DNA of 64,000 bases from a virus (Duplodnaviria; Heunggongvirae; Uroviricota; Caudoviricetes), in IMG/VR virus record IMGVR_UViG_2795385694_000001, one strand, 5' to 3'. The translations under genes and the position numbers were made by a program. The notes beneath the pieces were generated by a model. It was not told where the DNA came from, searched no databases, and saw nothing but the letters and a program-made list of their open reading frames with translations. Positions 10,114 through 18,638 of this stretch are shown one piece after another. Position 1 is the first letter of the stretch. Each line of letters starts with the position of its first letter.

Positions 10114-11153
10114 TCGATCACCTCAGTGAATGGCCCGAATCGCTCTTCGAGCAGACCCATGGAGCGCAAGGTGTACCACTCCTCGTCCCCAACCTTCGAC
10201 TTCCATGAACCTGAGACGAACTTGTACCGACGCCCTATTCGGCCATCTACAGGACTCCACACCGTTCCGTCTCTAGCCTCTTCACAATCCAGGCTCGGAA
10301 GTACACGGGGCTCAAGGATTTCGGTGTAGGGGGCATATGTGGGAGACGGGTTGCCGACAGCCCAAATGTCAGGACATTCGCGCCAGCGCCAGCCGTTCTG
10401 GTACTTCCATTCATCCCCGTCACGGTCCCGCCACCGCGATCCCTGCTCGTCTACCCCTAGACGGTCAACGACACGGGGTTTACGTCCGGTGGCGTCTTTG
10501 AATTTGACCCTCTGTTGATGGTCTGCCACGAAGTCGATTGCCGGTTCCTGTTGTGCCGTAACGTCAAAGTCAACCGAACTTTGACTTTCGTTGGACTTTC
10601 CCGGTTCCTGTTGTGCTGTTGGGTCGATTCGCTTGACCGGCCTGAACTGCTCAATGAACCGCTCGACAGGATCGTTGGCGCTGGACCATTCCCCGATCTC
10701 GTTCACCGAGGAACAGGTGTACAGGATTCGGTTTACGGTCTCTTCCCAATAGTCACGCTCCCGGAGCGCGCTATCTTCCGCCTTATCGAGGCGATCGATC
10801 TCCGCGTGTAGTTCATCGAGCGTCTTCCCTGTCGGGTCGTAGATGACAGGCCAAGAGTCTGCGTCGTCCGCATCGGTAGGTTCTTCTGCGAACAACTCCG
10901 AGTCGTACAGTGGCTTGTAGCTCCAATGGGGCGAGCCCCAGAATTTGTCTCGGTCGCCTTGGACCCGGATGGCTACAGCCTCCCCGTCTGGTCGTCGTGC
11001 GATGGTGCCAACAGGCGCACCCTCGGGGACGCTGTTAGCGGCAGCGATCATTGCGTCTACCTCGTAGAGGCCGATCACTTCATCGACATTGAACGATAGG
11101 TAGTCAGCCATCGCTTTCCTCTGCGCTTCAGACGGATTCAACACGTTCACCAA
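10110..11153 (-). CDS. hypothetical protein with internal TAQQEP repeat and a C-terminal SLDCxEARDGTVW domain
   Basis: ORF track; the C-terminal ~60 aa are paralogous to the C-terminus of the 37110..37577 product. Confidence 0.55.
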   Translation of the reverse strand: MVNVLNPSEAQRKAMADYLSFNVDEVIGLYEVDAMIAAANSVPEGAPVGTIARRPDGEAVAIRVQGDRDKFWGSPHWSYKPLYDSELFAEEPTDADDADSWPVIYDPTGKTLDELHAEIDRLDKAEDSALRERDYWEETVNRILYTCSSVNEIGEWSSANDPVERFIEQFRPVKRIDPTAQQEPGKSNESQSSVDFDVTAQQEPAIDFVADHQQRVKFKDATGRKPRVVDRLGVDEQGSRWRDRDGDEWKYQNGWRWRECPDIWAVGNPSPTYAPYTEILEPRVLPSLDCEEARDGTVWSPVDGRIGRRYKFVSGSWKSKVGDEEWYTLRSMGLLEERFGPFTEVIE

Positions 11154-11833
11154 CCAAACTCCTTTGGTACATAGACTTGGTTCTGCGGTCGGATGAAGTC
11201 CGAATCCGCTGGCGGTTGGTCAGATTCTGTGATGCGAATCAGCAGACGCCATCCACGTTCAGTAGCCTGCGACGCCTGGTGGATGTTCCACCAATCCCAT
11301 GAGTGCCAAACAGCCTCTTGCGCGACCAATTTCCGCAGGGTCGTGCAACCATCAATCCGGCGAGTTAATTCTGAGTAGAGCTGTTCGCCTTCGTCGTGCT
11401 TAATCGGCAGGTGCAGTAATCCATCAATGAACACAGTCGGGCAGTCGTTTCCAACGTGCAGCGTGTGGTAGCGCGGGTAATAGCCCTCAAGGGAACGGTA
11501 ATTCTGCAGCGGAAGGGACGGCGTGCCCCAATTCGCTGGGGTCACGGTCTCGTCTGCAGCGCTGTAGCGCGGCACACCATCGGTATGCCACCCGGGAATC
11601 GCAGGCCACCAACCAGGCATCAGCATAGAGACCTTAGTGTCCACGAAGATGTGCTTGTGGTCCCCCACAATTGGGGCTGACTGCAGGAGTCCGCGCAAGA
11701 GTGGACCTCCATAGAGCACAGCATTCGGCAGGCTCGCGCGGCGCAGGTTCGGTGTCCCCTCGATTAGCGCGTGGTCGGATTCCGCTCTGGGCCCGATCAC
11801 CACAGGGTTGCGGTTAAACCAGTAGGCGGTCAT
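11147..11833 (-). CDS. putative Fe(II)/2-oxoglutarate-dependent oxygenase (PhyH-like WHTD...H motif)
   Basis: GWHTDG then YHTLHVG motifs; start chosen at MTAYWF with ATGA overlap to Pth2. Confidence 0.4.
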   Translation of the reverse strand: MTAYWFNRNPVVIGPRAESDHALIEGTPNLRRASLPNAVLYGGPLLRGLLQSAPIVGDHKHIFVDTKVSMLMPGWWPAIPGWHTDGVPRYSAADETVTPANWGTPSLPLQNYRSLEGYYPRYHTLHVGNDCPTVFIDGLLHLPIKHDEGEQLYSELTRRIDGCTTLRKLVAQEAVWHSWDWWNIHQASQATERGWRLLIRITESDQPPADSDFIRPQNQVYVPKEFGW

Positions 11834-12183
11834 AGCAGTTTCAGCTCCCCTGTAATCGGCGCGAGTTCGTCGGCGGTCGCTGGGCCAATGGCACAACAGG
11901 TAGTTGTGAGCACGCCGTGGAACTCAGTCTGTCCGTTGTCGGTAATCAAAGAGTTCGGGATCCCGGCCTTAATTGCCTTATCCCACAGCTCAATCAGCGC
12001 ATCTTCACTCTCGACACGTACACATACCTTGGTGAAACTCCCCTGCAGCCACTCTTCAACGCGCGGATCCGAGAGGTATTCGAGCGTCGCAGCCAGCGAT
12101 GCATGTGCGCCCTGTGCGACCATCTTGCCTGCGCGCATACCAAGGTCTTTGCGCATGACGATCATTTGCTTCAGCTCACTCAT
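11830..12183 (-). CDS. pth2: peptidyl-tRNA hydrolase, PTH2 family
   Basis: KQMIVMRKDLGMRAGKMVAQGAHASL ... ITDNGQTEF...CAIGPATADELAPITGELKLL aligns along its length to archaeal/eukaryotic Pth2 (PTRH2). Confidence 0.85.
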   Translation of the reverse strand: MSELKQMIVMRKDLGMRAGKMVAQGAHASLAATLEYLSDPRVEEWLQGSFTKVCVRVESEDALIELWDKAIKAGIPNSLITDNGQTEFHGVLTTTCCAIGPATADELAPITGELKLL

Positions 12184-12299: not shown

Positions 12300-12812
12300 T
12301 CACCGTGCAAGAGCGCACGGTCCAGTGTGTGGGTCGACGTGGTAACTGGCTGGTGGTGAACATAGCGGGCCGCTGTAGCCGAAATTGGTAACCGAGATCC
12401 CCGCGCGTTCTGCTCGCTTCATGCAATCCCAGGTACCGCGTGAATCCTTCAACGGGAAGGCGATACACGTATCGGCACCACGGTCGACCATCTCCTGGTT
12501 TCGCAGGTGCCCAGCGACCGGGCAATAGCGAGTACCGTTCTTCCACCGAACGGCATGAGTGCAGTGCTGGTCGCAGTCTCGGTACCAGTCCGCAGGAACG
12601 CCCTCGTTCATTACCGGAAGGCCCTTAGCCATCGCTTCGTCGGCCCACTGCGATGCGAACAGGTCAGCACCGCTCGGGCACTCCCCCTGCACCACAACGA
12701 GATCGCCCTGGCCGCGCTTCCCTGCAATCGCAAGCTGGGCATTCAGAGCGGAACGTACGAACTTACGGGACGGCCAGGCCCGACTACCTGTAACCAGAAC
12801 GCGGCGCGTCAT
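12300..12812 (-). CDS. SLOG/DUF2493 (YspA-like) protein; apparent frameshift near the 3' end
   Basis: VLVTGSRAW...VVQGECPSGADLFASQWA...PADW motifs; a coding-like frame continues to 12184. Confidence 0.6.
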   Translation of the reverse strand: MTRRVLVTGSRAWPSRKFVRSALNAQLAIAGKRGQGDLVVVQGECPSGADLFASQWADEAMAKGLPVMNEGVPADWYRDCDQHCTHAVRWKNGTRYCPVAGHLRNQEMVDRGADTCIAFPLKDSRGTWDCMKRAERAGISVTNFGYSGPLCSPPASYHVDPHTGPCALAR

Positions 12813-12979
12813 AGCAAGGCACCCACAACCGTCACCAATAGGCCGATCACCGCAACGACCATCGCAACCGGCAATAGTGTCAGCGGCAGGTCATAGACCA
12901 AACCCATGACGCACATTCCTGACGGAACCCCCACGAGTACGCCCGACCAGTATGGAACGAGAGGGTTCAATGCCCCCAC
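12809..12979 (-). CDS. small two-TM membrane protein
   Basis: Hydrophobic C-terminal half of the 12809..13219 ORF; GTG or ATG internal start; ATGA overlap with the downstream gene. Confidence 0.3.
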   Translation of the reverse strand: MGALNPLVPYWSGVLVGVPSGMCVMGLVYDLPLTLLPVAMVVAVIGLLVTVVGALL

Positions 12980-13073
12980 CTCAGCTCCATCAACACCGGG
13001 AAGATTAGGACCAGGATGACCACGAGCCCACCCATCGCCAGTGACACGTACCAAGCCCAATCGTCCAGGCGCT

Positions 13074-13373
13074 TCATAGCTTCTCCAGCTTGTAGGTTGA
13101 AAGAACTTTCCGGATCGCGCCTGGATAAGTCCACCCCTGTCCGGCCTCCTCTTCCACGGCGGCAATGAAGGCCTTCTCGACAGCCTCCTGCTCCTCAAGT
13201 GCCTGGTAAGTCTCAGCACGCTCTCCGAGCCATAGCGCGACCTCTCGGATTCGGTCCGTGCCTGGACTAGATGGGCCGGAAGAAATCCCGCGCCATATAA
13301 TGTCGCGCGCGAACAAAATCATTTCCGGCGTGACAGTCGGAATCCTCTCGAAGTCATAGGGATTCGATGTCAT
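13074..13373 (-). CDS. hypothetical protein
   Basis: ORF track; ATG 13373. Confidence 0.5.
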   Translation of the reverse strand: MTSNPYDFERIPTVTPEMILFARDIIWRGISSGPSSPGTDRIREVALWLGERAETYQALEEQEAVEKAFIAAVEEEAGQGWTYPGAIRKVLSTYKLEKL

Positions 13374-13484
13374 GCCTGACGCTCCATCTTGATGTTCTCA
13401 ATCAACTCCGCTACCGACGCTACGAAGTCAACCACGCTCAGGGCGACGATTGTGATGCTCAAGTACTTTCTGAATTCCTTCATA
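13372..13484 (-). CDS. 36-aa hydrophobic peptide
   Basis: MKEFRKYLSITIVALSVVDF...; preceded by an 11-aa leader ORF that starts in the ACCCACATGAACC motif. Confidence 0.25.
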
Positions 13485-13560
13485 TACCAATGCTATTGAG
13501 CGATTCGGGGTTCATGTGGGTACGAAAAATGCCCCCAGCTTTCGCTGAGGGCTCTTCGAG

Positions 13561-13631
13561 TAGTCCATGCGGGAATCAAACCCGCACCAACACCTTGAGA
13601 GGGTGGTGTGCTCTCACTACACCAATGGACC
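13561..13631 (-). tRNA. tRNA-Glu (anticodon CTC)
   Basis: Hand-folded cloverleaf: acceptor GGTCCAT/ATGGACT, T-arm GCGGG-TTTGATT-CCCGC, anticodon loop CTCTCAA. Confidence 0.6.
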
Positions 13632-13637
13632 TTAGGG

Positions 13638-13976
13638 CTATTGCTCAACCCACTTGCCGGATTCACGAACCTCTGTCTTGAGGTTAACCGGCCACATATC
13701 ACGCTCCACTTGGGCACGTTGTAGGTCTTCGCGGCCCACCTGACGTTTCACCCATAGCTGGAACTTTGGTGAGCTCACCATGCGCCTGAACGCGGCCTGC
13801 TTGTTCTGCAGCTGGCTACGCTCCTCGCGCGACTCACCCACCGCGCCAGAAGGCTCATGCGTAATCCGCACGCCCGTCTCGCGCTTGTTCTGGTTTTGAC
13901 CGCCTTTGCCCCCAGATCGGAATGTGTCCACACGACAATCCGAGAGGGTGACAGACAGTACCCGTTCTCTACTCAC
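13638..13976 (-). CDS. arfB: ArfB-like peptidyl-tRNA hydrolase (class I release-factor GGQ domain protein)
   Basis: FRSGGKGGQNQNKRETGVRITHEPSG ... ESREERSQLQNKQAAFRRM matches the GGQ catalytic domain of ArfB/ICT1 and RF1. Confidence 0.8.
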   Translation of the reverse strand: MSRERVLSVTLSDCRVDTFRSGGKGGQNQNKRETGVRITHEPSGAVGESREERSQLQNKQAAFRRMVSSPKFQLWVKRQVGREDLQRAQVERDMWPVNLKTEVRESGKWVEQ

Positions 13977-13977
13977 G

Positions 13978-14051
13978 TCAAGTCGACCGGATTTGAACCG
14001 GCGTCCCCCGCCGTGACAGGGCGGTGCTTTAGACCTCTAAGCTACGACTCG
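13978..14051 (-). tRNA. tRNA-Asp (GTC)
   Basis: Acceptor CGAGTCG/CGACTTG, D-stem GCTT/AAGC, anticodon arm CCGCC-CTGTCAC-GGCGG, T-arm GCCGG-TTCAAAT-CCGGT. Confidence 0.7.
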
Positions 14052-14302
14052 AAAGAACGTTTGCCCCCAGTGGTTTTCGAGGCCACTGGGGCAGGTACGA
14101 ACAACCTGAGCCAACTTTCTGGGAATCAAACCCTGGAGCTGCTTGGCCAAAACTCCCGTGGAGACGGTGCGAATTGAACGCGACCACACCAATCTTGCAA
14201 GGATCGGTCGCCACCTTGGAACATGCGCCCCCAAGGCCCCCGTTTTGACAAGACTGGGTCTGAACTTGGACGGTTACCTCAACGGAGCCGACAACCCTGT
14301 AG

Positions 14303-14376
14303 GGCCTCATCGAGGTCTCGAACCCCGCGCCTCTTCGTTACTAAGGAAGTGCTCTAGCCAGATGAGCTAATGAGGC
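14303..14376 (-). tRNA. tRNA, anticodon AGT (Thr?), with a C.C mismatch closing the anticodon stem
   Basis: Acceptor GCCTCAT/ATGAGGC, D-arm GCTC..GAGC, T-arm CGGGG-TTCGAGA-CCTCG. Confidence 0.55.
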
Positions 14377-14425
14377 CTGGTGCATAGGCGTTTTGAACAG
14401 GTGCCCTTGCAAGTGGCCTGTGGCG

Positions 14426-14493
14426 TACCCAGTCGAGGAATCGAACCCCGCTTGGCTGGATGTAAGCCAGCTTTCGTCCCAGACTAACCAGGC
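14426..14493 (-). tRNA. tRNA-Val (TAC), short D-arm
   Basis: Anticodon arm GCTGG-CTTACAT-CCAGC, T-arm CGGGG-TTCGATT-CCTCG, acceptor with G.U pairs; 68 nt. Confidence 0.5.
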
Positions 14494-14498
14494 ATGAG

Positions 14499-14573
14499 AA
14501 CGAGTGACCAGATTCGAACTGGCACGACCTGTTTGGAAGACAGGGATGCTAAACCGTTAAACATCACACTCGC
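14499..14573 (-). tRNA. tRNA-Gly (TCC)
   Basis: Acceptor GCGAGTG/CACTCGT, D-stem GATG/CATC, anticodon arm CCTGT-CTTCCAA-ACAGG, T-loop TTCGAAT. Confidence 0.7.
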
Positions 14574-14577
14574 ATGG

Positions 14578-14644
14578 AGCGGCAGAGGTGACTCGAACAC
14601 CCTTGCAGCGGCTTAGGAGGCCACGCACTTTCCGGAACTACCGC
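14578..14644 (-). tRNA. tRNA-Arg (CCT)?, degenerate D-arm
   Basis: Acceptor GCGGTAG/CTGCCGC, anticodon arm GTGGC-CTCCTAA-GCCGC, T-arm GGGTG-TTCGAGT-CACCT; only 67 nt. Confidence 0.45.
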
Positions 14645-14649
14645 TTGGT

Positions 14650-14719
14650 AGGTTCGCACAGAATTGAACTGTGATTGCCGACGTATCAGATCGGTGTCCT
14701 TACCGTTGGACGACGAACC
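14650..14719 (-). tRNA. tRNA-Ile (GAT)
   Basis: D-stem GTCC/GGAC, anticodon arm CCGAT-CTGATAC-GTCGG, T-arm CACAG-TTCAATT-CTGTG. Confidence 0.6.
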
Positions 14720-14721
14720 AG

Positions 14722-14793
14722 TGGGTCTGGTAGGACTCGAACCTACGTCTCCGACTTAAGAGGACGGAGCTAAACCATCTCAGCTACAAACCC
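14722..14793 (-). tRNA. tRNA-Lys (CTT)
   Basis: Acceptor GGGTTTG/CAGACCC, D-stem AGCT/AGCT, anticodon loop CTCTTAA, T-arm GTAGG-TTCGAGT-CCTAC. Confidence 0.65.
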
Positions 14794-14801
14794 ATTGTTG
14801 G

Positions 14802-14873
14802 TAGGGCGCAAGGGATTCGAACCCTCAACACGCGAGGTAAAAGCTCGGGGTGATTCCGTTTCACCAACGCCCA
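14802..14873 (-). tRNA. tRNA-Lys (TTT)
   Basis: D-stem GTGA/TCAC, anticodon arm CCGAG-CTTTTAC-CTCG, T-arm GAGGG-TTCGAAT-CCCTT. Confidence 0.6.
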
Positions 14874-14876
14874 ATA

Positions 14877-15047
14877 TCAATTCATTGCCGGAAACGCCTC
14901 CCACACATGCGGATAAGCAGCGCGGTATGCGTCGCGACTGGAGCGTGTAAGAATTGTCGTCGGCTTACACCCGACAACCACCAGCCCTTCCCTGCTCACC
15001 CTCTCCACCGCGAGCTCAGGAGTCATCCTCCTGCCGTACACAAACAT
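14877..15047 (-). CDS. small hypothetical protein embedded in the tRNA array
   Basis: The ORF 14877..15113 was trimmed to the first ATG that does not overlap the tRNA at 15085..15159; moderately GC3-rich. Confidence 0.3.
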   Translation of the reverse strand: MFVYGRRMTPELAVERVSREGLVVVGCKPTTILTRSSRDAYRAAYPHVWEAFPAMN

Positions 15048-15084
15048 CGTGCCGGTGGTCGTCTCGACATCGAATACTTTCACG

Positions 15085-15159
15085 TAGTCGGCGCGAGGAT
15101 CGAACTCGCACACACCGAGGTTTGAACTCGGCGGCTTTGCCAGGTTTGCCTAGCCGACC
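15085..15159 (-). tRNA. tRNA with anticodon CAA (Leu-type) but class I (short variable arm)
   Basis: Acceptor GGTCGGC/GCCGACT, anticodon arm CCGAG-TTCAAAC-CTCGG, T-arm GCGAG-TTCGATC-CTCGC. Confidence 0.5.
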
Positions 15160-15217
15160 ATGCTCAGCATTTAACCGACCCGAGGCGGTCGGCACCCGTG
15201 AGGGCTGTTTGAACCGG

Positions 15218-15291
15218 TACTCCAAGAGGGATTCGAACCCACAACCTCCAGGGTCTAAGCCTGTCGCCTCTGCCAGTTGGGCTATTGGAGC
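15218..15291 (-). tRNA. tRNA with anticodon TAG (reads CUA; Leu-type) but class I structure
   Basis: Acceptor GCTCCAA/TTGGAGT, anticodon loop CTTAGAC, T-arm GTGGG-TTCGAAT-CCCTC. Confidence 0.5.
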
Positions 15292-15348
15292 TTGGTGCCG
15301 ATATTGCCGCGTCGGCTTTACGGTGACTCCTACTCACCGAGCGCGTCG

Positions 15349-15420
15349 AGACGAGGGCCGGGATCGAACCGGCGTGGGTCAGGGTTGCAGCCTGCCAGCT
15401 AGCCACTCACTCACTTCGCC
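15349..15420 (-). tRNA. tRNA-Cys (GCA)?, D-arm unclear
   Basis: T-arm GCCGG-TTCGATC-CCGGC is perfect; anticodon arm CAGG-CTGCAAC-CCTG; acceptor has one A.C mismatch. Confidence 0.45.
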
Positions 15421-15428
15421 CTAAGCCG

Positions 15429-15593
15429 CTATTCTGCGGCGGGTGCTGCCTTCTTCGCGGGGGCCTTCTTGGCTACCGGCTTCTCTTCCACTGCGTAGTG
15501 GAAGTCCTCAAGGGCATCCATACGATCAATCAGGTCGTTTACCGCCTTGACGATGTCGATATGGGCGATGCCCGTGCGCAGCTTGTCAGTCAT
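15429..15593 (-). CDS. 54-aa protein with Lys/Ala-rich tail (MTDKLRTGIAHIDIVKAV...)
   Basis: ATG with AAAGG RBS at 6-nt spacing; lies between tRNAs; below the track cutoff. Confidence 0.4.
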   Translation of the reverse strand: MTDKLRTGIAHIDIVKAVNDLIDRMDALEDFHYAVEEKPVAKKAPAKKAAPAAE

Positions 15594-15616
15594 ATTGGCC
15601 TTTCGGTGTCTGTACG

Positions 15617-15687
15617 TCCCCGTGCGCGGAGTTGAACCGCGATAACCTCGGTCACAGCGAGGGGCTCTGCCATTGAGCTACACAAGG
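15617..15687 (-). tRNA. tRNA-His (GTG)
   Basis: Classic D-arm TAGCTCAATGGCAGAGC, anticodon arm CCTCG-CTGTGAC-CGAGG, T-arm CGCGG-TTCAACT-CCGCG. Confidence 0.7.
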
Positions 15688-15751
15688 TATGGCGCTGGCC
15701 AGAGCAGCATGGCATCTCTGTTCCTTCGGGCTTTGTACCGGCAGCGCTCAG

Positions 15752-15826
15752 ACCCGTTGACAGGATTCGAACCTGCATGCGTTGCGCCTTCGTAGGGCGG
15801 TGGGCGCTCCATTGCCCAACAACGGG
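15752..15826 (-). tRNA. tRNA-Arg (ACG)
   Basis: Acceptor CCCGTTG/CAACGGG, D-stem GGGC/GCCC, anticodon loop CTACGAA, T-arm GCAGG-TTCGAAT-CCTGT. Confidence 0.7.
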
Positions 15827-15905
15827 ATAGCCCGACTCTTTAACCTTCTCCGTGGGTTTCGGGACCAGACTAATTCTCCTGGGAGGTGCTGGCGAGCGGA
15901 CCCTG

Positions 15906-15980
15906 TGGCGGGTACCGGATTTGAACCGGTGGTCTCAAGGTTATGAGCCTTGCGAGATGGCCGAGCTTCTCTAACCCGCT
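15906..15980 (-). tRNA. tRNA-Met (CAT) (initiator, elongator or Ile-lysidine type not resolved)
   Basis: Anticodon arm CAAGG-CTCATAA-CCTTG is perfect; T-arm ACCGG-TTCAAAT-CCGGT. Confidence 0.65.
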
Positions 15981-16105
15981 ATGTATGGTGACTCATTCCG
16001 GCAGGACAGTTCGTCGCCTACCGTATCCGCGCGAGTCAACGCGACCTTTTACGTGGAGTGCCCAGCTTTTCACCAGTAGCTGTGGAACCTGGTTTCCCTT
16101 ACACG

Positions 16106-16179
16106 CCGACTCTCCCCGAATCGAACGGGGGCGCACCGGGCTTCAACCGGTCGCTCTTACCTAACTGAGCTAAGAGTCG
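16106..16179 (-). tRNA. tRNA-Phe (GAA)
   Basis: D-arm TAGCTCAGTTAGGTAAGAGC, anticodon arm ACCGG-TTGAAGC-CCGGT, T-arm CCCCG-TTCGATT-CGGGG, acceptor CGACTCT/AGAGTCG. Confidence 0.75.
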
Positions 16180-16473
16180 ATTGTTAGAGGCTGAGAGTAC
16201 ACCCGCTATCGAGAACCTTTCGCAGCATTATGGATTCGCTGCTTCTCCAGGCCATCCCTGACCTAGTTCTCACGCCTGGTCCGTTACCGTGAACCACTCG
16301 TTATGCCGAAAGCTACTCTGCGGCTTTCCCTTCGCGATGAGATGGCCGTCTCACTGCTGCAGTACTTGCCTACAAACCGCACTCACCTTGCGGGACTATT
16401 GTGCGGCCCAGATTCCCGAGGGTCTGGGATTAAGGCGCTTTTGCTCCTCGGCAGGGGAAGGACTTTTGCTTTT

Positions 16474-16545
16474 TATTGACGACGGGACTTGAACCCGCAC
16501 ATCCAGTTTCCAATAACTGGTGACCTACCGTTGGTCTACGCCATT
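16474..16545 (-). tRNA. tRNA with a non-standard 8-nt (or 6-nt) anticodon loop; identity unresolved
   Basis: D-arm GACC-AACGGTA-GGTC, T-arm GCGGG-TTCAAGT-CCCGT; anticodon region CCAGT-TATTGGAA-ACTGG. Confidence 0.45.
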
Positions 16546-16999
16546 CTCGCAGCGGAGAATGATTTGACTAGAGACGTGCTTCCCCATGAAGTTCCGAACC
16601 CTTTTGGGGCACAGAATGCTTCACGCCTCTCGTGCTTTCGCCTGGCGGGGCTAATTACACTCTCTCTCAACCGCATTGCGAGCCGTCGCCCGACGCGAGA
16701 TCAATCATGGAACACGCCCTTGCTTGCGAAGCTCGGACTCAGTTCCTTCCGCTCCACAGGGCGCTTGTTCGATAGCCTTTTCACACGCACGTACGTGATG
16801 GTGTCCTCAGCACTTTGCCGTTGGACGGGGCGTAACTCGCAACCTGGCAGCCATCTCTGACTGCTCAAGGATTGGATTGCATGGATTGCCCTTGCGGGTG
16901 GTGGGTTGTCACCCCACCTTTCACCACCTTGCGGTGGCTTATGGGCCATGCCCCGAATATCTTAACTATATCTCCCACAACGGAGTTCGTGTGGGTGAG

Positions 17000-17082
17000 C
17001 GGAGAGGCAGGTATTCGAAACCTACTGCGAACAGCGCTCCGGTTAGCAACCGGGCCTAGTCACCTAACTAGTTGCGCTCTCC
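17000..17082 (-). tRNA. tRNA-Ser (GCT), class II
   Basis: Acceptor GGAGAGC/CCTCTCC, anticodon loop TTGCTAA, variable stem-loop GCG-CTGTT-CGC, T-arm TAGGT-TTCGAAT-ACCTG. Confidence 0.6.
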
Positions 17083-17161
17083 ATGGTCCACCATTTCAGC
17101 ACCGACGCGATCTTCAGTGCACCTGTTCAGCCACCATTCAGGCAGGTGGAAGTCTTTAGAG

Positions 17162-17246
17162 CGGAAAGTCGAGGAATCGAACCCCCAGGACGCACTGCCT
17201 GCCCCGGTATTCGACGCCGGTTGCCGACCATTCAGCGGGACCTTCC
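17162..17246 (-). tRNA. tRNA-Ser (CGA), class II
   Basis: Acceptor GGAAGGT/ACTTTCC, anticodon loop GTCGAAT, long variable arm GCAGG..CCTG. Confidence 0.55.
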
Positions 17247-17328
17247 ATCGCCCCAGAATTCATGACGCAGCCTGGCGCACACTGCGGACAGCCAACTCAT
17301 GGCAGGTACCTACCGGTTGACCCAAATG

Positions 17329-17401
17329 CTGATGACCCTGGATTCGAACCAAGACCTACGTGGTTCAGAGCCACGTGTGCTGCCGGTTACACCAATCATC
17401 A
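17329..17401 (-). tRNA. tRNA-Gln (CTG)
   Basis: D-arm GTG-TAACCGGCAG-CAC, anticodon arm CGTGG-CTCTGAA-CCACG is perfect, T-arm CTTGG-TTCGAAT-CCAGG. Confidence 0.7.
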
Positions 17402-17480
17402 ATGCTGAGACTGGCCTTGCGGGCGGGGGAACGTTTCTGCTTGCCGCAAGCCTTCAGTTCGTTCCACACCAGTCTCATTG

Positions 17481-17557
17481 TCTCGCCGTCAGGAGTCGAA
17501 CCTGCACACCCGAAGGAGCAGATTTACAGTCTGCGTTGATCGCCTATTCGCGACGAG
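17481..17557 (-). tRNA. tRNA-Tyr (GTA)
   Basis: Anticodon arm GCAGA-CTGTAAA-TCTGC is perfect; extended variable region; T-arm GCAGG-TTCGACT-CCTG. Confidence 0.6.
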
Positions 17558-17609
17558 ATTGGAGCCAGTGCTCGGCTTCTCGCCGATTCGCATGCACACA
17601 CTGACATGG

Positions 17610-17682
17610 CTGGCTTGGAAGGATTCGAACCTACACCTCGCGAGTTAACAGCTCGCTGCTCTACCAATTGAGCTACAGGCCA
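17610..17682 (-). tRNA. tRNA-Asn (GTT)
   Basis: D-arm TAGCTCAATTGGTAGAGC, anticodon arm GCGAG-CTGTTAA-CTCGC, T-arm GTAGG-TTCGAAT-CCTTC. Confidence 0.7.
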
Positions 17683-17801
17683 AGAGCGAGGGTCGCCAGT
17701 GTCAGCGCGCTTTCCGACCTGTGCGACCCTCTTGCCCGTCCTGCTTAGAGATGAGACGGAGCCGAAAACACCCGTACGGTCATCATACGTGATGACCAAC
17801 G

Positions 17802-17876
17802 TCTGCCAGGCGCGATTTGAACACGCGATCTCCTGGACCCAAACCAGGCGGGATGGCCAAACTTCCCTACAAGCAG
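17802..17876 (-). tRNA. tRNA-Pro (TGG)
   Basis: Anticodon arm CCTGG-TTTGGGT-CCAGG is perfect; T-arm GCGTG-TTCAAAT-CGCGC. Confidence 0.6.
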
Positions 17877-18156
17877 ATGATGGACGACACGGCCCAGGTA
17901 CGGCACCTCAGGTCGGATCCTTTTTATCGGAACCTACTGCGGGATTACCCTGCCATCCATATGGCCACCGGCATCCCGATGGTCGCGCGGAGATGTCTCT
18001 CCACATTCCCCGTACGACCGACGCTTTCCTGGAGCTACCTGTACTTGCGCATGTGGTCTGACAGCCGGGGCCACACTGACTAACGAGGATGTTCTCCCTT
18101 TGCACTACCGGCAGCCTACGCCGCCAGTCGGGGCTCGAACCCGAATCTTCCTCTCG

Positions 18157-18510
18157 TGGAGCTGCCCGGAATTGAACCGGGATGTTACGTGACTTGTCAC
18201 AGTCTTCTACGTGCGTAGTCCACCGATTGGGTCGGTTGGGGTGGACGCCTGTCCGAATCGAGACCTCAGACTCTCGACCGATCTTCCAGCACAGTTTGTC
18301 GCCTGAGAGCTGGTCATTGCGAGTTCCCCGTATTCGCGACGGTGGATTGGTACACGGAACGGGTAAACCGTGGTACCCCACCGGACTACGCAGCTAGGGC
18401 GTAGTCGGACTGAGCAGAAGCTGCAGTTATTGTGGTTGCACTGTTACGGGCGTTGCGGGCCCGGCACGCTTCTCAGTAAGTTGACACGCAATCGAATACC
18501 TGTCAGCCCC
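18157..18510 (-). ncRNA. ssrA: tmRNA (ssrA), one-piece, mycobacterial type
   Basis: 5' GGGGCTGACAGG...GAAGCGTGCCGG...GCAACCACAATAACT then tag reading frame GCA GCT TCT GCT CAG TCC GAC TAC GCC CTA GCT GCG TAG (AASAQSDYALAA), 3' CCCGGTTCAATTCCGGGCAGCTCCA; this parallels the M. tuberculosis ssrA layout (tag ADSHQRDYALAA, as recalled). Confidence 0.85.
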
Positions 18511-18567
18511 ATTGAAGTATCTATATCTCTATGGAATTTTCAAATGTCATGCCACACAGAGGCATTG

Positions 18568-18638
18568 CACGGGCGGAGAGAATCGAACTCCCACTAACGG
18601 GTTTGGAATCCGTTGTCCTACCTTTGGACCACGCCCAT
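18568..18638 (-). tRNA. tRNA-Trp (CCA)
   Basis: D-stem GTCC/GGAC, anticodon loop TTCCAAA, T-arm GGGAG-TTCGATT-CTCTC. Confidence 0.6.

Follow-up and report, generated by a model that had tools for sequence, protein, structure and literature searches.

A short open reading frame (ORF) embedded in a tRNA array of a mycobacterial prophage raises the question of which kind of GGQ-bearing factor it encodes, and of what such a factor could do for the phage. A preliminary description of this DNA had assigned the product to the ArfB type of ribosome rescue factors. The window, that is, the whole stretch of 64,000 nucleotides that was analysed, corresponds to a cluster MabI prophage of Mycobacterium abscessus and, in the region of the gene referred to here as the mini release factor (mini-RF) gene, is 97% identical to prophiT49-2. 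The ORF runs from a GTG start codon at 13976 to a TAG stop codon. The features of the window that bear on its interpretation are collected in Table 1.

Table 1. Location of the mini-RF gene and of neighbouring features in the window.
Feature	Coordinates	Strand	Description and evidence
Mini release factor (mini-RF) gene	13638..13976	minus	112 aa; ORF, Pfam, PHROG, dN/dS, AF2
GGQ codons (GGC GGT CAA)	13896..13904	minus	Residues 25-27, catalytic motif; direct sequence reading
tRNA array including the mini-RF gene	13560..18638	minus	20 tRNAs (ARAGORN), tmRNA and GOLLD RNA, all on one strand; ARAGORN, Rfam
tRNA-Asp(gtc)	13977..14051	minus	ARAGORN; Rfam tRNA 13978-14051, 64.7 bits
tRNA-Glu(ctc)	13560..13631	minus	ARAGORN; Rfam 58.8 bits; last gene of the array
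Terminator-like GC-rich hairpin with T-run	13531..13552	minus	Consensus scan; directly after tRNA-Glu
Phage tmRNA	18156..18510	minus	Tag peptide AASAQSDYALAA; ARAGORN; Rfam tmRNA 82 bits; about 4.2 kb upstream of the mini-RF gene
Pth2-type peptidyl-tRNA hydrolase	11830..12183	minus	Pfam PTH2 E=5e-32; downstream, same direction
SLOG/YAcAr-domain protein ("DprA-like" in GenBank)	12300..12812	minus	Pfam PF10686 E=2.5e-10

The ORF is a real phage gene under selection, with match scores far above chance. The Pfam RF-1 domain (PF00472) was detected with an E-value of 1.1e-18 and 67.7 bits, against a cutoff of 35, and PHROG 3122 was matched with an E-value of 1.1e-59, residues 1-112 covering positions 19-130 of the 136 in the profile. 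In comparisons with three related prophages, dN/dS ranged from 0.02 to 0.04 at dS values of 0.2-0.7; the orthologues of prophi86-1 and prophiGD54-2 differ from the window copy by 30-36 synonymous and 3-5 non-synonymous changes (dS 0.5-0.7). The GGQ motif highlighted in the preliminary description is indeed present, within the segment RSGGKGGQNQNKRETGVRITHEPSG (residues 20-44), and was invariant in sets of 48 and 120 close homologues. The GTG at 13976 is the correct start, as it coincides with the point where the protein begins in 48 and in 120 family members. For the same reason, the 97-aa coding sequence annotated in prophiT49-2, which starts at V16 and loses the first strand of the domain, is regarded as a truncation; the 112-aa form is the one annotated in prophi86-1 and prophiGD54-2.

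The gene itself is not a discovery. The mini-RF region shares 91-97% DNA identity with three M. abscessus prophages of cluster MabI (Vilmaviridae/Mclasvirinae), namely prophiT49-2, prophi86-1, and prophiGD54-2 (for the assignment of prophiGD54-2, see PMC8092301), and near-identical copies are already in GenBank, the closest being gene 135 of prophiT49-2 (97% identity). A tblastn search located the mini-RF in 208 Mycobacterium phage records at 72-75% protein identity, including cluster C1 myoviruses such as Cali and the Wildcat-like EniyanLRS. These mycobacteriophage proteins, annotated as "RF-1 (domain) peptide chain release factor", belong to the same family (PHROG 3122) and have the same length as the window copy; members include prophiT49-2 gene 135, prophiGD54-2 gene 125, Cali gp203, and EniyanLRS gp129. 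The GenBank name of the family, "RF-1 domain peptide chain release factor", is given at the level of the domain only. The presence of a release factor in such arrays has been noted in two papers: one grouped it with tRNAs and tmRNA under "translational reprogramming" (PMC8092301), and the other reported that tRNA arrays of mycobacteria include genes for RF-1, Pth, and tmRNA (Morgado and Vicente 2018, PMC5966550). A literature search found no functional study, biochemical or genetic, of phage GGQ or mini release factors, and the survey of RF domains by Burroughs and Aravind (PMC6514570) makes no mention of phages.

The family is large. In a large protein collection, 1638 homologues were retrieved at E<=1e-5, the best 120 of which were 97-142 aa long. 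An exhaustive profile search brought up 150 or more representatives of clusters formed at 50% identity, with lengths of about 95-190 aa in nearly all cases and matches to nearly the full profile in most; all cluster representatives outscored canonical release factors by far. The architecture is steady at about 110-125 aa. Within the family, conservation is 100% for G25 and G26 and 92-100% for Q27, and the GG pair, H40, N58, A62, and W75 are near-invariant. Wherever the context was looked at, the family was found in phages or prophage-like regions. Tblastn matches in Lak megaphages were rejected as mini-RFs, as they correspond to a full-length RF2 of 378 aa. Because it corresponds to only part of a class I release factor, the mini-RF might be taken for the functionless remnant of a host prfA or prfB gene that was captured and is decaying; this reading, however, deserves virtually no credence given the strength of purifying selection (dN/dS 0.02-0.04), the constant architecture, and the full-length conservation over at least 150 clusters, with catalytic and structural residues invariant.

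The comparison with known GGQ proteins separated the mini-RF from ArfB. The preliminary description held that the protein matches ArfB rather than RF1/RF2, but scores with NCBIfam models followed the opposite order: 69.8 bits for prfB, 64.2 for prfA, 54.2 for prfH, and 25.2 for ArfB. The ArfB model (NF006718, cutoff 100) aligned only with residues 6-40, which contain the GGQ loop. The RF1/RF2 models, of about 350 positions, were matched at positions 209-293 only, with scores 5-6 times under the prfA and prfB cutoffs (69.8 bits versus 370 for TIGR00020, and 64.2 versus 400 for NF001859). In the case of the PrfH model (TIGR03072, cutoff 166.65), residues 11-87 aligned to positions 105-179 of 200, and the N-terminal half of PrfH is absent. 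When the family profile was compared with PDB sequences, E-values were 1e-14 to 1e-17 for RF1, RF2, and mtRF1, 1e-13 for PrfH, 1e-7 for C12orf65, 3e-4 for ArfB (GGQ loop only), and above 0.2 for ICT1. Similarly, phmmer searches of PDB sequences with the mini-RF matched RF1, RF2, mtRF1, and PrfH, and neither ArfB nor ICT1.

Alignments with the Escherichia coli proteins, taken from the K-12 record, agree with this order. Positions 12-102 of the family profile align to residues 237-326 of RF2, a stretch that takes in the switch loop and reaches the IRSYV strand, and the pattern GGQ..NK....VRI.H.PSG......ERSQ..NK..A is shared with RF1/RF2, the best match in both sequence and fold. ArfB, in contrast, aligns only as two short pieces split by the ArfB insertion; profile positions 38-46 span ArfB residues 39-71, which means that the insertion of about 24 residues (approximately 40-70 in E. 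coli) is missing from the mini-RF. Only 22 residues of the ORF precede the G-x-GGQ motif (GKGGQ, residues 23-27), nothing lies N-terminal to domain 3, and the codon-recognition domain 2 with its PxT or SPF motif is absent. With only 112 aa, there is no room for domains 2/4 or domain 1. Thus, the part of the preliminary description that saw here a catalytic peptidyl-tRNA hydrolase domain only, devoid of codon-recognition domains, holds, although the lineage to which this domain belongs is a different one.

Structure prediction with AF2 gave a confident model (mean pLDDT of 87.8, with C-terminal blocks at about 76-85). The model contains strands at residues 15-21, 32-40, and 45-49, helices at 55-68 and 70-93, and a hairpin formed by 102-105 and 108-111. 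As judged from sequence and predicted fold, the mini-RF is domain 3 of RF1/RF2/PrfH, not ArfB, followed by a long helix and one short beta-hairpin, with domains 1 and 2 missing; the hairpin corresponds to the first strands of release factor domain 4. The predicted fold is much nearer to RF1/RF2/PrfH than to ArfB. Compared with RF1/RF2, the mini-RF has kept little of domain 4 and nothing of domains 1 and 2, and hence has no stop-codon reading. It is the most reduced derivative of class I release factors seen so far.

The C-terminal region also departs from that of ArfB. A basic tail of the ArfB type had been proposed, but the net charge of residues 85-112 is 0 and that of residues 71-112 is +2, whereas residues 101-140 of E. 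coli ArfB carry +13. In 120 close homologues the mean C-terminal net charge was -1.3, and the median for 124 cluster representatives (50% identity) was -3 (range -10 to +4). Instead of a basic tail, the region is predicted to be folded as a long alpha-7-like helix and a beta-hairpin with W75 and W109, both of which are near-invariant, as are E102 and G107. One further residue drew attention: in a profile alignment of the actinophage subgroup, W95 coincides with the switch-loop W319 of RF2, which stacks on A1492 during termination (PMC5378476). W95 is 75% conserved in the close homologues of this subgroup and is not conserved across the wider family; its equivalence to W319 was consequently dropped as a family-level mechanism.

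These observations weigh directly on the possibility that the mini-RF is an ArfB/ICT1 orthologue, in which a basic tail attached to a GGQ domain would probe the mRNA channel left empty on non-stop ribosomes. In favour of this reading, the GGQ domain stands alone, the size of the protein is roughly that expected, and the GGQ loop is weakly ArfB-like (25 bits with NF006718; 3e-4 with ArfB in the PDB). However, the ArfB model is far under its cutoff and covers residues 6-40 only, RF1/RF2/PrfH are much closer in sequence and fold, the ArfB insertion is missing, and in place of a basic tail there is a folded, neutral to acidic segment anchored by Trp. Membership in the ArfB family was therefore rejected on the grounds of model score, profile E-values, missing insertion, and missing basic tail, and orthology is very improbable. 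What the mini-RF shares with ArfB (YaeJ) and ICT1 is the concept of a lone GGQ domain acting without a stop codon; it belongs to another GGQ-domain lineage and has neither the insertion nor the linker and basic helical tail. Codon-independent release of the ArfB kind is nevertheless plausible as a functional analogy.

Taken overall, the best explanation, and one that we consider reasonably likely, is that the mini-RF is a minimal factor derived from class I release factors that would act as a stop-codon-independent peptide release factor. Judging from its context, ribosome-dependent release that does not require a stop codon is the most likely function. Early in lytic growth, the protein would enter the A site of ribosomes that have stalled, with no need to read a stop codon, and place its GGQ motif in the peptidyl-transferase centre; the nascent chain would then be released, and the ribosomes would be freed for phage translation. 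In this task, the mini-RF may work together with the phage tmRNA, Pth2, the array of about 20 tRNAs and, in relatives, the RNA ligase RtcB, as a module for translation maintenance or counter-defence. The conserved helix-hairpin (W75, E102, G107, W109) is a candidate sensor or partner-binding element. The isolated GGQ domain of ArfB requires its tail for ribosome binding, and the acidic-to-neutral C-terminus of the mini-RF at the place of that tail counts against the rescue reading.

A further alternative is that the mini-RF modulates ordinary termination, as an extra or competing factor at stop codons that would speed up termination or alter read-through. Its GenBank name of "release factor" and its grouping under "translational reprogramming" (PMC8092301) point in this direction. 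Yet domain 2 and the PxT/SPF tripeptide are both missing, which leaves the protein with no known means of reading a stop codon and makes this role improbable.

In the window, the tmRNA and Pth2 genes share a block with the mini-RF gene, an association that points to ribosome rescue or RNA repair. As noted in the preliminary description, the gene is wedged between tRNA genes: the space from tRNA-Asp(gtc) to tRNA-Glu(ctc) is taken up by the ORF, whose stop codon lies 6 nt before the 5' end of tRNA-Glu at 13631. The hairpin that follows tRNA-Glu is a possible end of the array transcript, but the number of such sites in the consensus scan equals the shuffle expectation and the evidence is accordingly weak. 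With the same kind of scan, whose counts likewise equalled the shuffle expectation, no promoter of its own was found near the ORF, and no TANNNT-like element was seen by eye upstream of the GTG.

In the MabI relatives, the order in the direction of transcription is tRNA-Asp, RF, tRNA-Glu, an RtcB-like ligase, a SLOG-domain protein, a small ORF, and Pth2, RtcB being found immediately downstream in prophiT49-2, prophi86-1, and prophiGD54-2. The window copy has the same tRNA-Asp, RF, tRNA-Glu cassette but no RtcB after it: a tblastn search of the window with the RtcB of prophiT49-2 (E<=1) found none, and small ORFs without matches take its place. The small ORFs near the window mini-RF had no Pfam match, and one of them, of 99 aa, had no PHROG match either. 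The gene for the SLOG/YAcAr-domain protein lies near the mini-RF in the window, in the MabI relatives, and in EniyanLRS. In Mycolicibacterium palauense, the cassette of tRNA-Asp, RF (72% protein identity), and tRNA-Glu(ctc) is also present, with RtcB two genes downstream. Two distant loci, L091 and L094, in which RF identity drops to 53-56%, have RtcB 30-300 nt from the mini-RF. In the Acidobacteria phage Tunturi_4, a permuted tmRNA (Rfam 79 bits) comes 5 nt after the gene for a 115-aa mini-RF.

A survey of 80 IMG/VR loci put these cases in perspective. At least one tRNA was found within 10 kb in 48 of them and none in the other 32; 28 loci had five or more tRNAs within that distance, and in 17 a tRNA lay within 100 nt of the mini-RF. 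A tmRNA was detected in 8 of the 80 loci, and RtcB within 10 kb in 6 (including L091 and L094). Against the idea of a translation module, the mini-RF of cluster C phages and of a 167-kb contig is located among replication and not translation genes; in cluster C phages such as Cali, it is flanked by the genes for DNA polymerase III alpha and a UvsX-like recombinase. Mini-RF genes are enriched in neighbourhoods with tRNA, tmRNA, RtcB, or Pth2, though not universally, and this is an association only.

The recurrence of RtcB brings in the main rival to the favoured explanation, namely a PrfH-like factor tied to RNA repair. Such a factor would release peptides from ribosomes jammed by nuclease damage (16S rRNA cleaved at the decoding centre, cleaved tRNA, or cleaved mRNA), after which RtcB could religate the RNA, as a counter to ribotoxins or anticodon nucleases. 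The adjacency of RtcB in the three GenBank MabI prophages, in M. palauense, and in L091 and L094 mirrors the known RtcB2-PrfH operon (PMC9304027). In addition, PrfH is among the nearest structures, and the loop and hairpin kept in the mini-RF correspond, by an approximate mapping, to the PrfH segment with R181, H184, and R189 that contacts C1914 and A1493P. On the other hand, the window is without any RtcB, so that a PrfH-like pairing cannot be claimed for this copy, and 74 of the 80 IMG/VR loci have no RtcB within 10 kb. The score with TIGR03072 is low (54 bits versus 167), and most of the damage pocket of PrfH is formed by an N-terminal portion (F9-P12, R83-N90) that is missing from the mini-RF; PrfH keeps a modified domain 2/4 that recognizes cleaved A1493, and the mini-RF does not. 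We grant this reading a minor, although appreciable, chance.

A somewhat different mode of action would follow if the mini-RF resembled mtRF-R (C12orf65), operating on split large subunits that carry peptidyl-tRNA instead of on 70S ribosomes, perhaps together with a partner protein. Both are short GGQ proteins with a C-terminal helical extension and their likeness is detectable by profile comparison. An acidic to neutral C-terminus would suit contact with a protein or a tRNA better than insertion into the mRNA channel, and small overlapping upstream ORFs exist in some relatives (gp128 of EniyanLRS and a 71-aa ORF in L007). Nevertheless, the likeness to C12orf65 (E=1e-7) is weaker than that to RF1/RF2 (1e-14 to 1e-17), and no conserved adjacent partner gene, nor any MTRES1/Hsp15-like partner, was found among the neighbours: gp128, an annotated "RNA binding protein" that overlaps the RF start, had no Pfam match, and the tRNA-flanked versions have no adjacent ORF. 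An action of this type is rather unlikely.

For the favoured reading, that is, stop-codon-independent release by a minimal class I derivative, the junction between tRNA-Asp and the mini-RF offers a clue to expression. The preliminary description placed the start codon 2 nt from the 3' end of tRNA-Asp, which agrees with our coordinates by position count, with 0-1 nt intervening: the tRNA ends at 13977 according to ARAGORN and at the discriminator base, 13978, according to Rfam, so the GTG lies 0-1 nt past it. The 3' end of the tRNA (discriminator A at 13978 and C at 13977) abuts the GTG, and the 30 nt upstream of the ORF are made up of the T-arm and acceptor arm of tRNA-Asp. No Shine-Dalgarno sequence was found upstream of the window mini-RF or at the other starts abutting a tRNA, whereas a GGAG-type Shine-Dalgarno sequence was present in all four homologues checked outside arrays.

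The exact junction, consisting of discriminator base, C, and start codon, recurs in at least three lineages and with tRNAs for Asp, Leu, or Ser. The combination of tRNA-Asp(gtc) and GTG was found in the window, the MabI relatives, M. palauense, and L019, with three different tRNA-Asp sequences; tRNA-Leu(caa) is joined to ATG in L048, and tRNA-Ser(gct) to ATG in L075, L076, and L081. Every mini-RF start abutting a tRNA is either ATG or GTG. Mycobacterial initiation on leadered mRNAs depends on a Shine-Dalgarno sequence, whereas leaderless initiation requires only, and cannot do without, an ATG or GTG at the very 5' end (PMC4633059). A start that abuts a tRNA 3' end without a Shine-Dalgarno sequence suggests a leaderless mRNA. 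The mini-RF message would be cut from the tRNA precursor by tRNA end-processing, and the excised message would be translated as a leaderless mRNA, a mode that is efficient in mycobacteria. In its simplest reading, then, the mini-RF mRNA is probably leaderless and released by tRNA processing, as inferred from the arrangement of the sequence; cleavage at the discriminator base, however, would give a leader of 1 nt (C), which goes against a strictly leaderless route.

This recurrent start, abutting a tRNA and devoid of a Shine-Dalgarno sequence, looks new. If confirmed, the fusion of a tRNA 3' end with a start codon would be a bacterial or phage case of tRNA-punctuated leaderless mRNA and, if true, the making of a ribosome rescue factor would be coupled to tRNA processing. 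A bolder proposal, which we put forward tentatively and regard as possible but doubtful, is that the mini-RF constitutes a fifth, phage-specific class of bacterial-type GGQ rescue factors, beside RF1/2, ArfB/ICT1, PrfH, and C12orf65, in which the acidic helix-hairpin or a bound partner would serve as the sensor and which, in tRNA-array phages, would be made from a tRNA-punctuated, leaderless, and nearly UTR-less mRNA as in animal mitochondria. The substrate and timing of the mini-RF would show how tRNA-rich phages, including M. abscessus prophages of interest to phage therapy, keep ribosomes working under host attack.

The 3' side of the gene is similarly compact. In the MabI prophages 6 nt separate the stop codon from the next tRNA, and in the M. 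palauense type, L031, and L084 the ORF overlaps the following tRNA by 10-27 nt.

At several loci, the start codon of the gene for the small GGQ-domain release factor (mini-RF) was found to adjoin the 3' end of an upstream tRNA gene on the same strand, the junction consisting of the discriminator base, a C and ATG or GTG. This arrangement is present in the window (13974..13978), in the loci of the M. palauense type (L008/L022) and in the further loci L019, L048 and L075/L076/L081, and involves three tRNA species (Asp, Leu-caa and Ser-gct). No Shine-Dalgarno sequence was detected at any of these tRNA-abutting starts, suggesting that the mini-RF mRNA is leaderless at these loci and is made through tRNA 3' processing. 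In some GenBank records, the CDS is annotated as a 97-aa product that begins at the internal residue V16 and so lacks the conserved first strand; alignment of the family members supports instead the start of the 112-aa form, which abuts tRNA-Asp.

In some relatives, the other end of the mini-RF ORF runs 10-27 nt into the downstream tRNA gene, which thus contains the stop codon; only non-conserved C-terminal residues are touched by this overlap. Cleavage by RNase P at the overlapping tRNA would leave a mini-RF message without a stop codon. That the overlap might serve self-regulation of the rescue factor is pure speculation.

Coordinates of features in the tRNA array and around the mini-RF gene (L001, prophiT49-2; L012 and L013, the other GenBank MabI relatives; L003, EniyanLRS; L008, L031 and L084, further mini-RF loci)
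Feature	Location	Strand	Evidence or label
GOLLD RNA, full-length	window 16188..16631	(-)	Rfam RF02032, 195.7 bits, model positions 1-416
tRNA-like element embedded in GOLLD RNA	window 16474..16545	(-)	ARAGORN 'tRNA-???', 2-base anticodon (tg)
97-aa mini-RF annotation	L001 12166..12459 (gene 135)		GenBank; proteins P0004, P0005
mini-RF ORF end/downstream tRNA overlap	L008 6334..6348
mini-RF ORF end/downstream tRNA overlap	L031 about 10336..10345
mini-RF ORF end/downstream tRNA overlap	L084 about 10355..10381
RtcB-like RNA ligase	L001 10773..12011
RtcB-like RNA ligase	L012 1625..2857
RtcB-like RNA ligase	L013 1639..2964
SLOG/YAcAr-domain protein	window 12300..12812	(-)
SLOG/YAcAr-domain protein	L003 4270..4707
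SLOG/YAcAr-domain protein	L012 1116..1625
SLOG/YAcAr-domain protein	L013 1127..1639

Directly after tRNA-Glu, all three GenBank MabI relatives encode an RtcB-like RNA ligase. No RtcB was found in the window by tblastn; in its stead, positions 12813..13559 hold small ORFs with lengths of 37, 99 (13074..13373) and 55 aa. Pfam gave no match for any of them, nor did PHROG for the 99-aa ORF. A SLOG/YAcAr-domain protein, which GenBank labels 'DprA-like' and PHROG 289 labels 'GTP-binding domain', is located near the mini-RF gene in MabI prophages and in the Wildcat-like phage EniyanLRS, and at 7 of the 80 IMG/VR loci.

Within the tRNA array of the window lies a GOLLD RNA, and the odd tRNA call made there by ARAGORN is a tRNA-like element embedded in this RNA, which is annotated 'tRNA-OTHER Gln|Pro(tg)' in GenBank relatives. 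For mycobacterial tRNA clusters, GOLLD RNAs that contain a pseudo-tRNA have previously been reported (PMC6582537). Between tRNA-Asp and tRNA-Thr, prophiT49-2 carries tRNA-Glu(ttc) and tRNA-Ala(tgc), and prophiGD54-2 carries tRNA-Ala(tgc), whereas neither ARAGORN nor Rfam called a tRNA in the 250-nt gap of the window (14052..14301). Thus, the tRNA content of the array differs among close relatives. A GC-rich hairpin, GCCCCAGTGG...CCACTGGGGGC (window 14060..14096, minus strand), was noticed by eye on the array strand, immediately upstream of tRNA-Asp; it is missing from the terminator-scan output and may function in processing or attenuation.

Outside the mycobacterial phages, the Tunturiibacter phage Tunturi_4 (L004 4980..5741) carries a 115-aa mini-RF gene with a permuted tmRNA (Rfam RF04321, 79.2 bits) lying 5 nt downstream of it. 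This association of mini-RF with tmRNA, in a phage of Acidobacteria, is an independent one.
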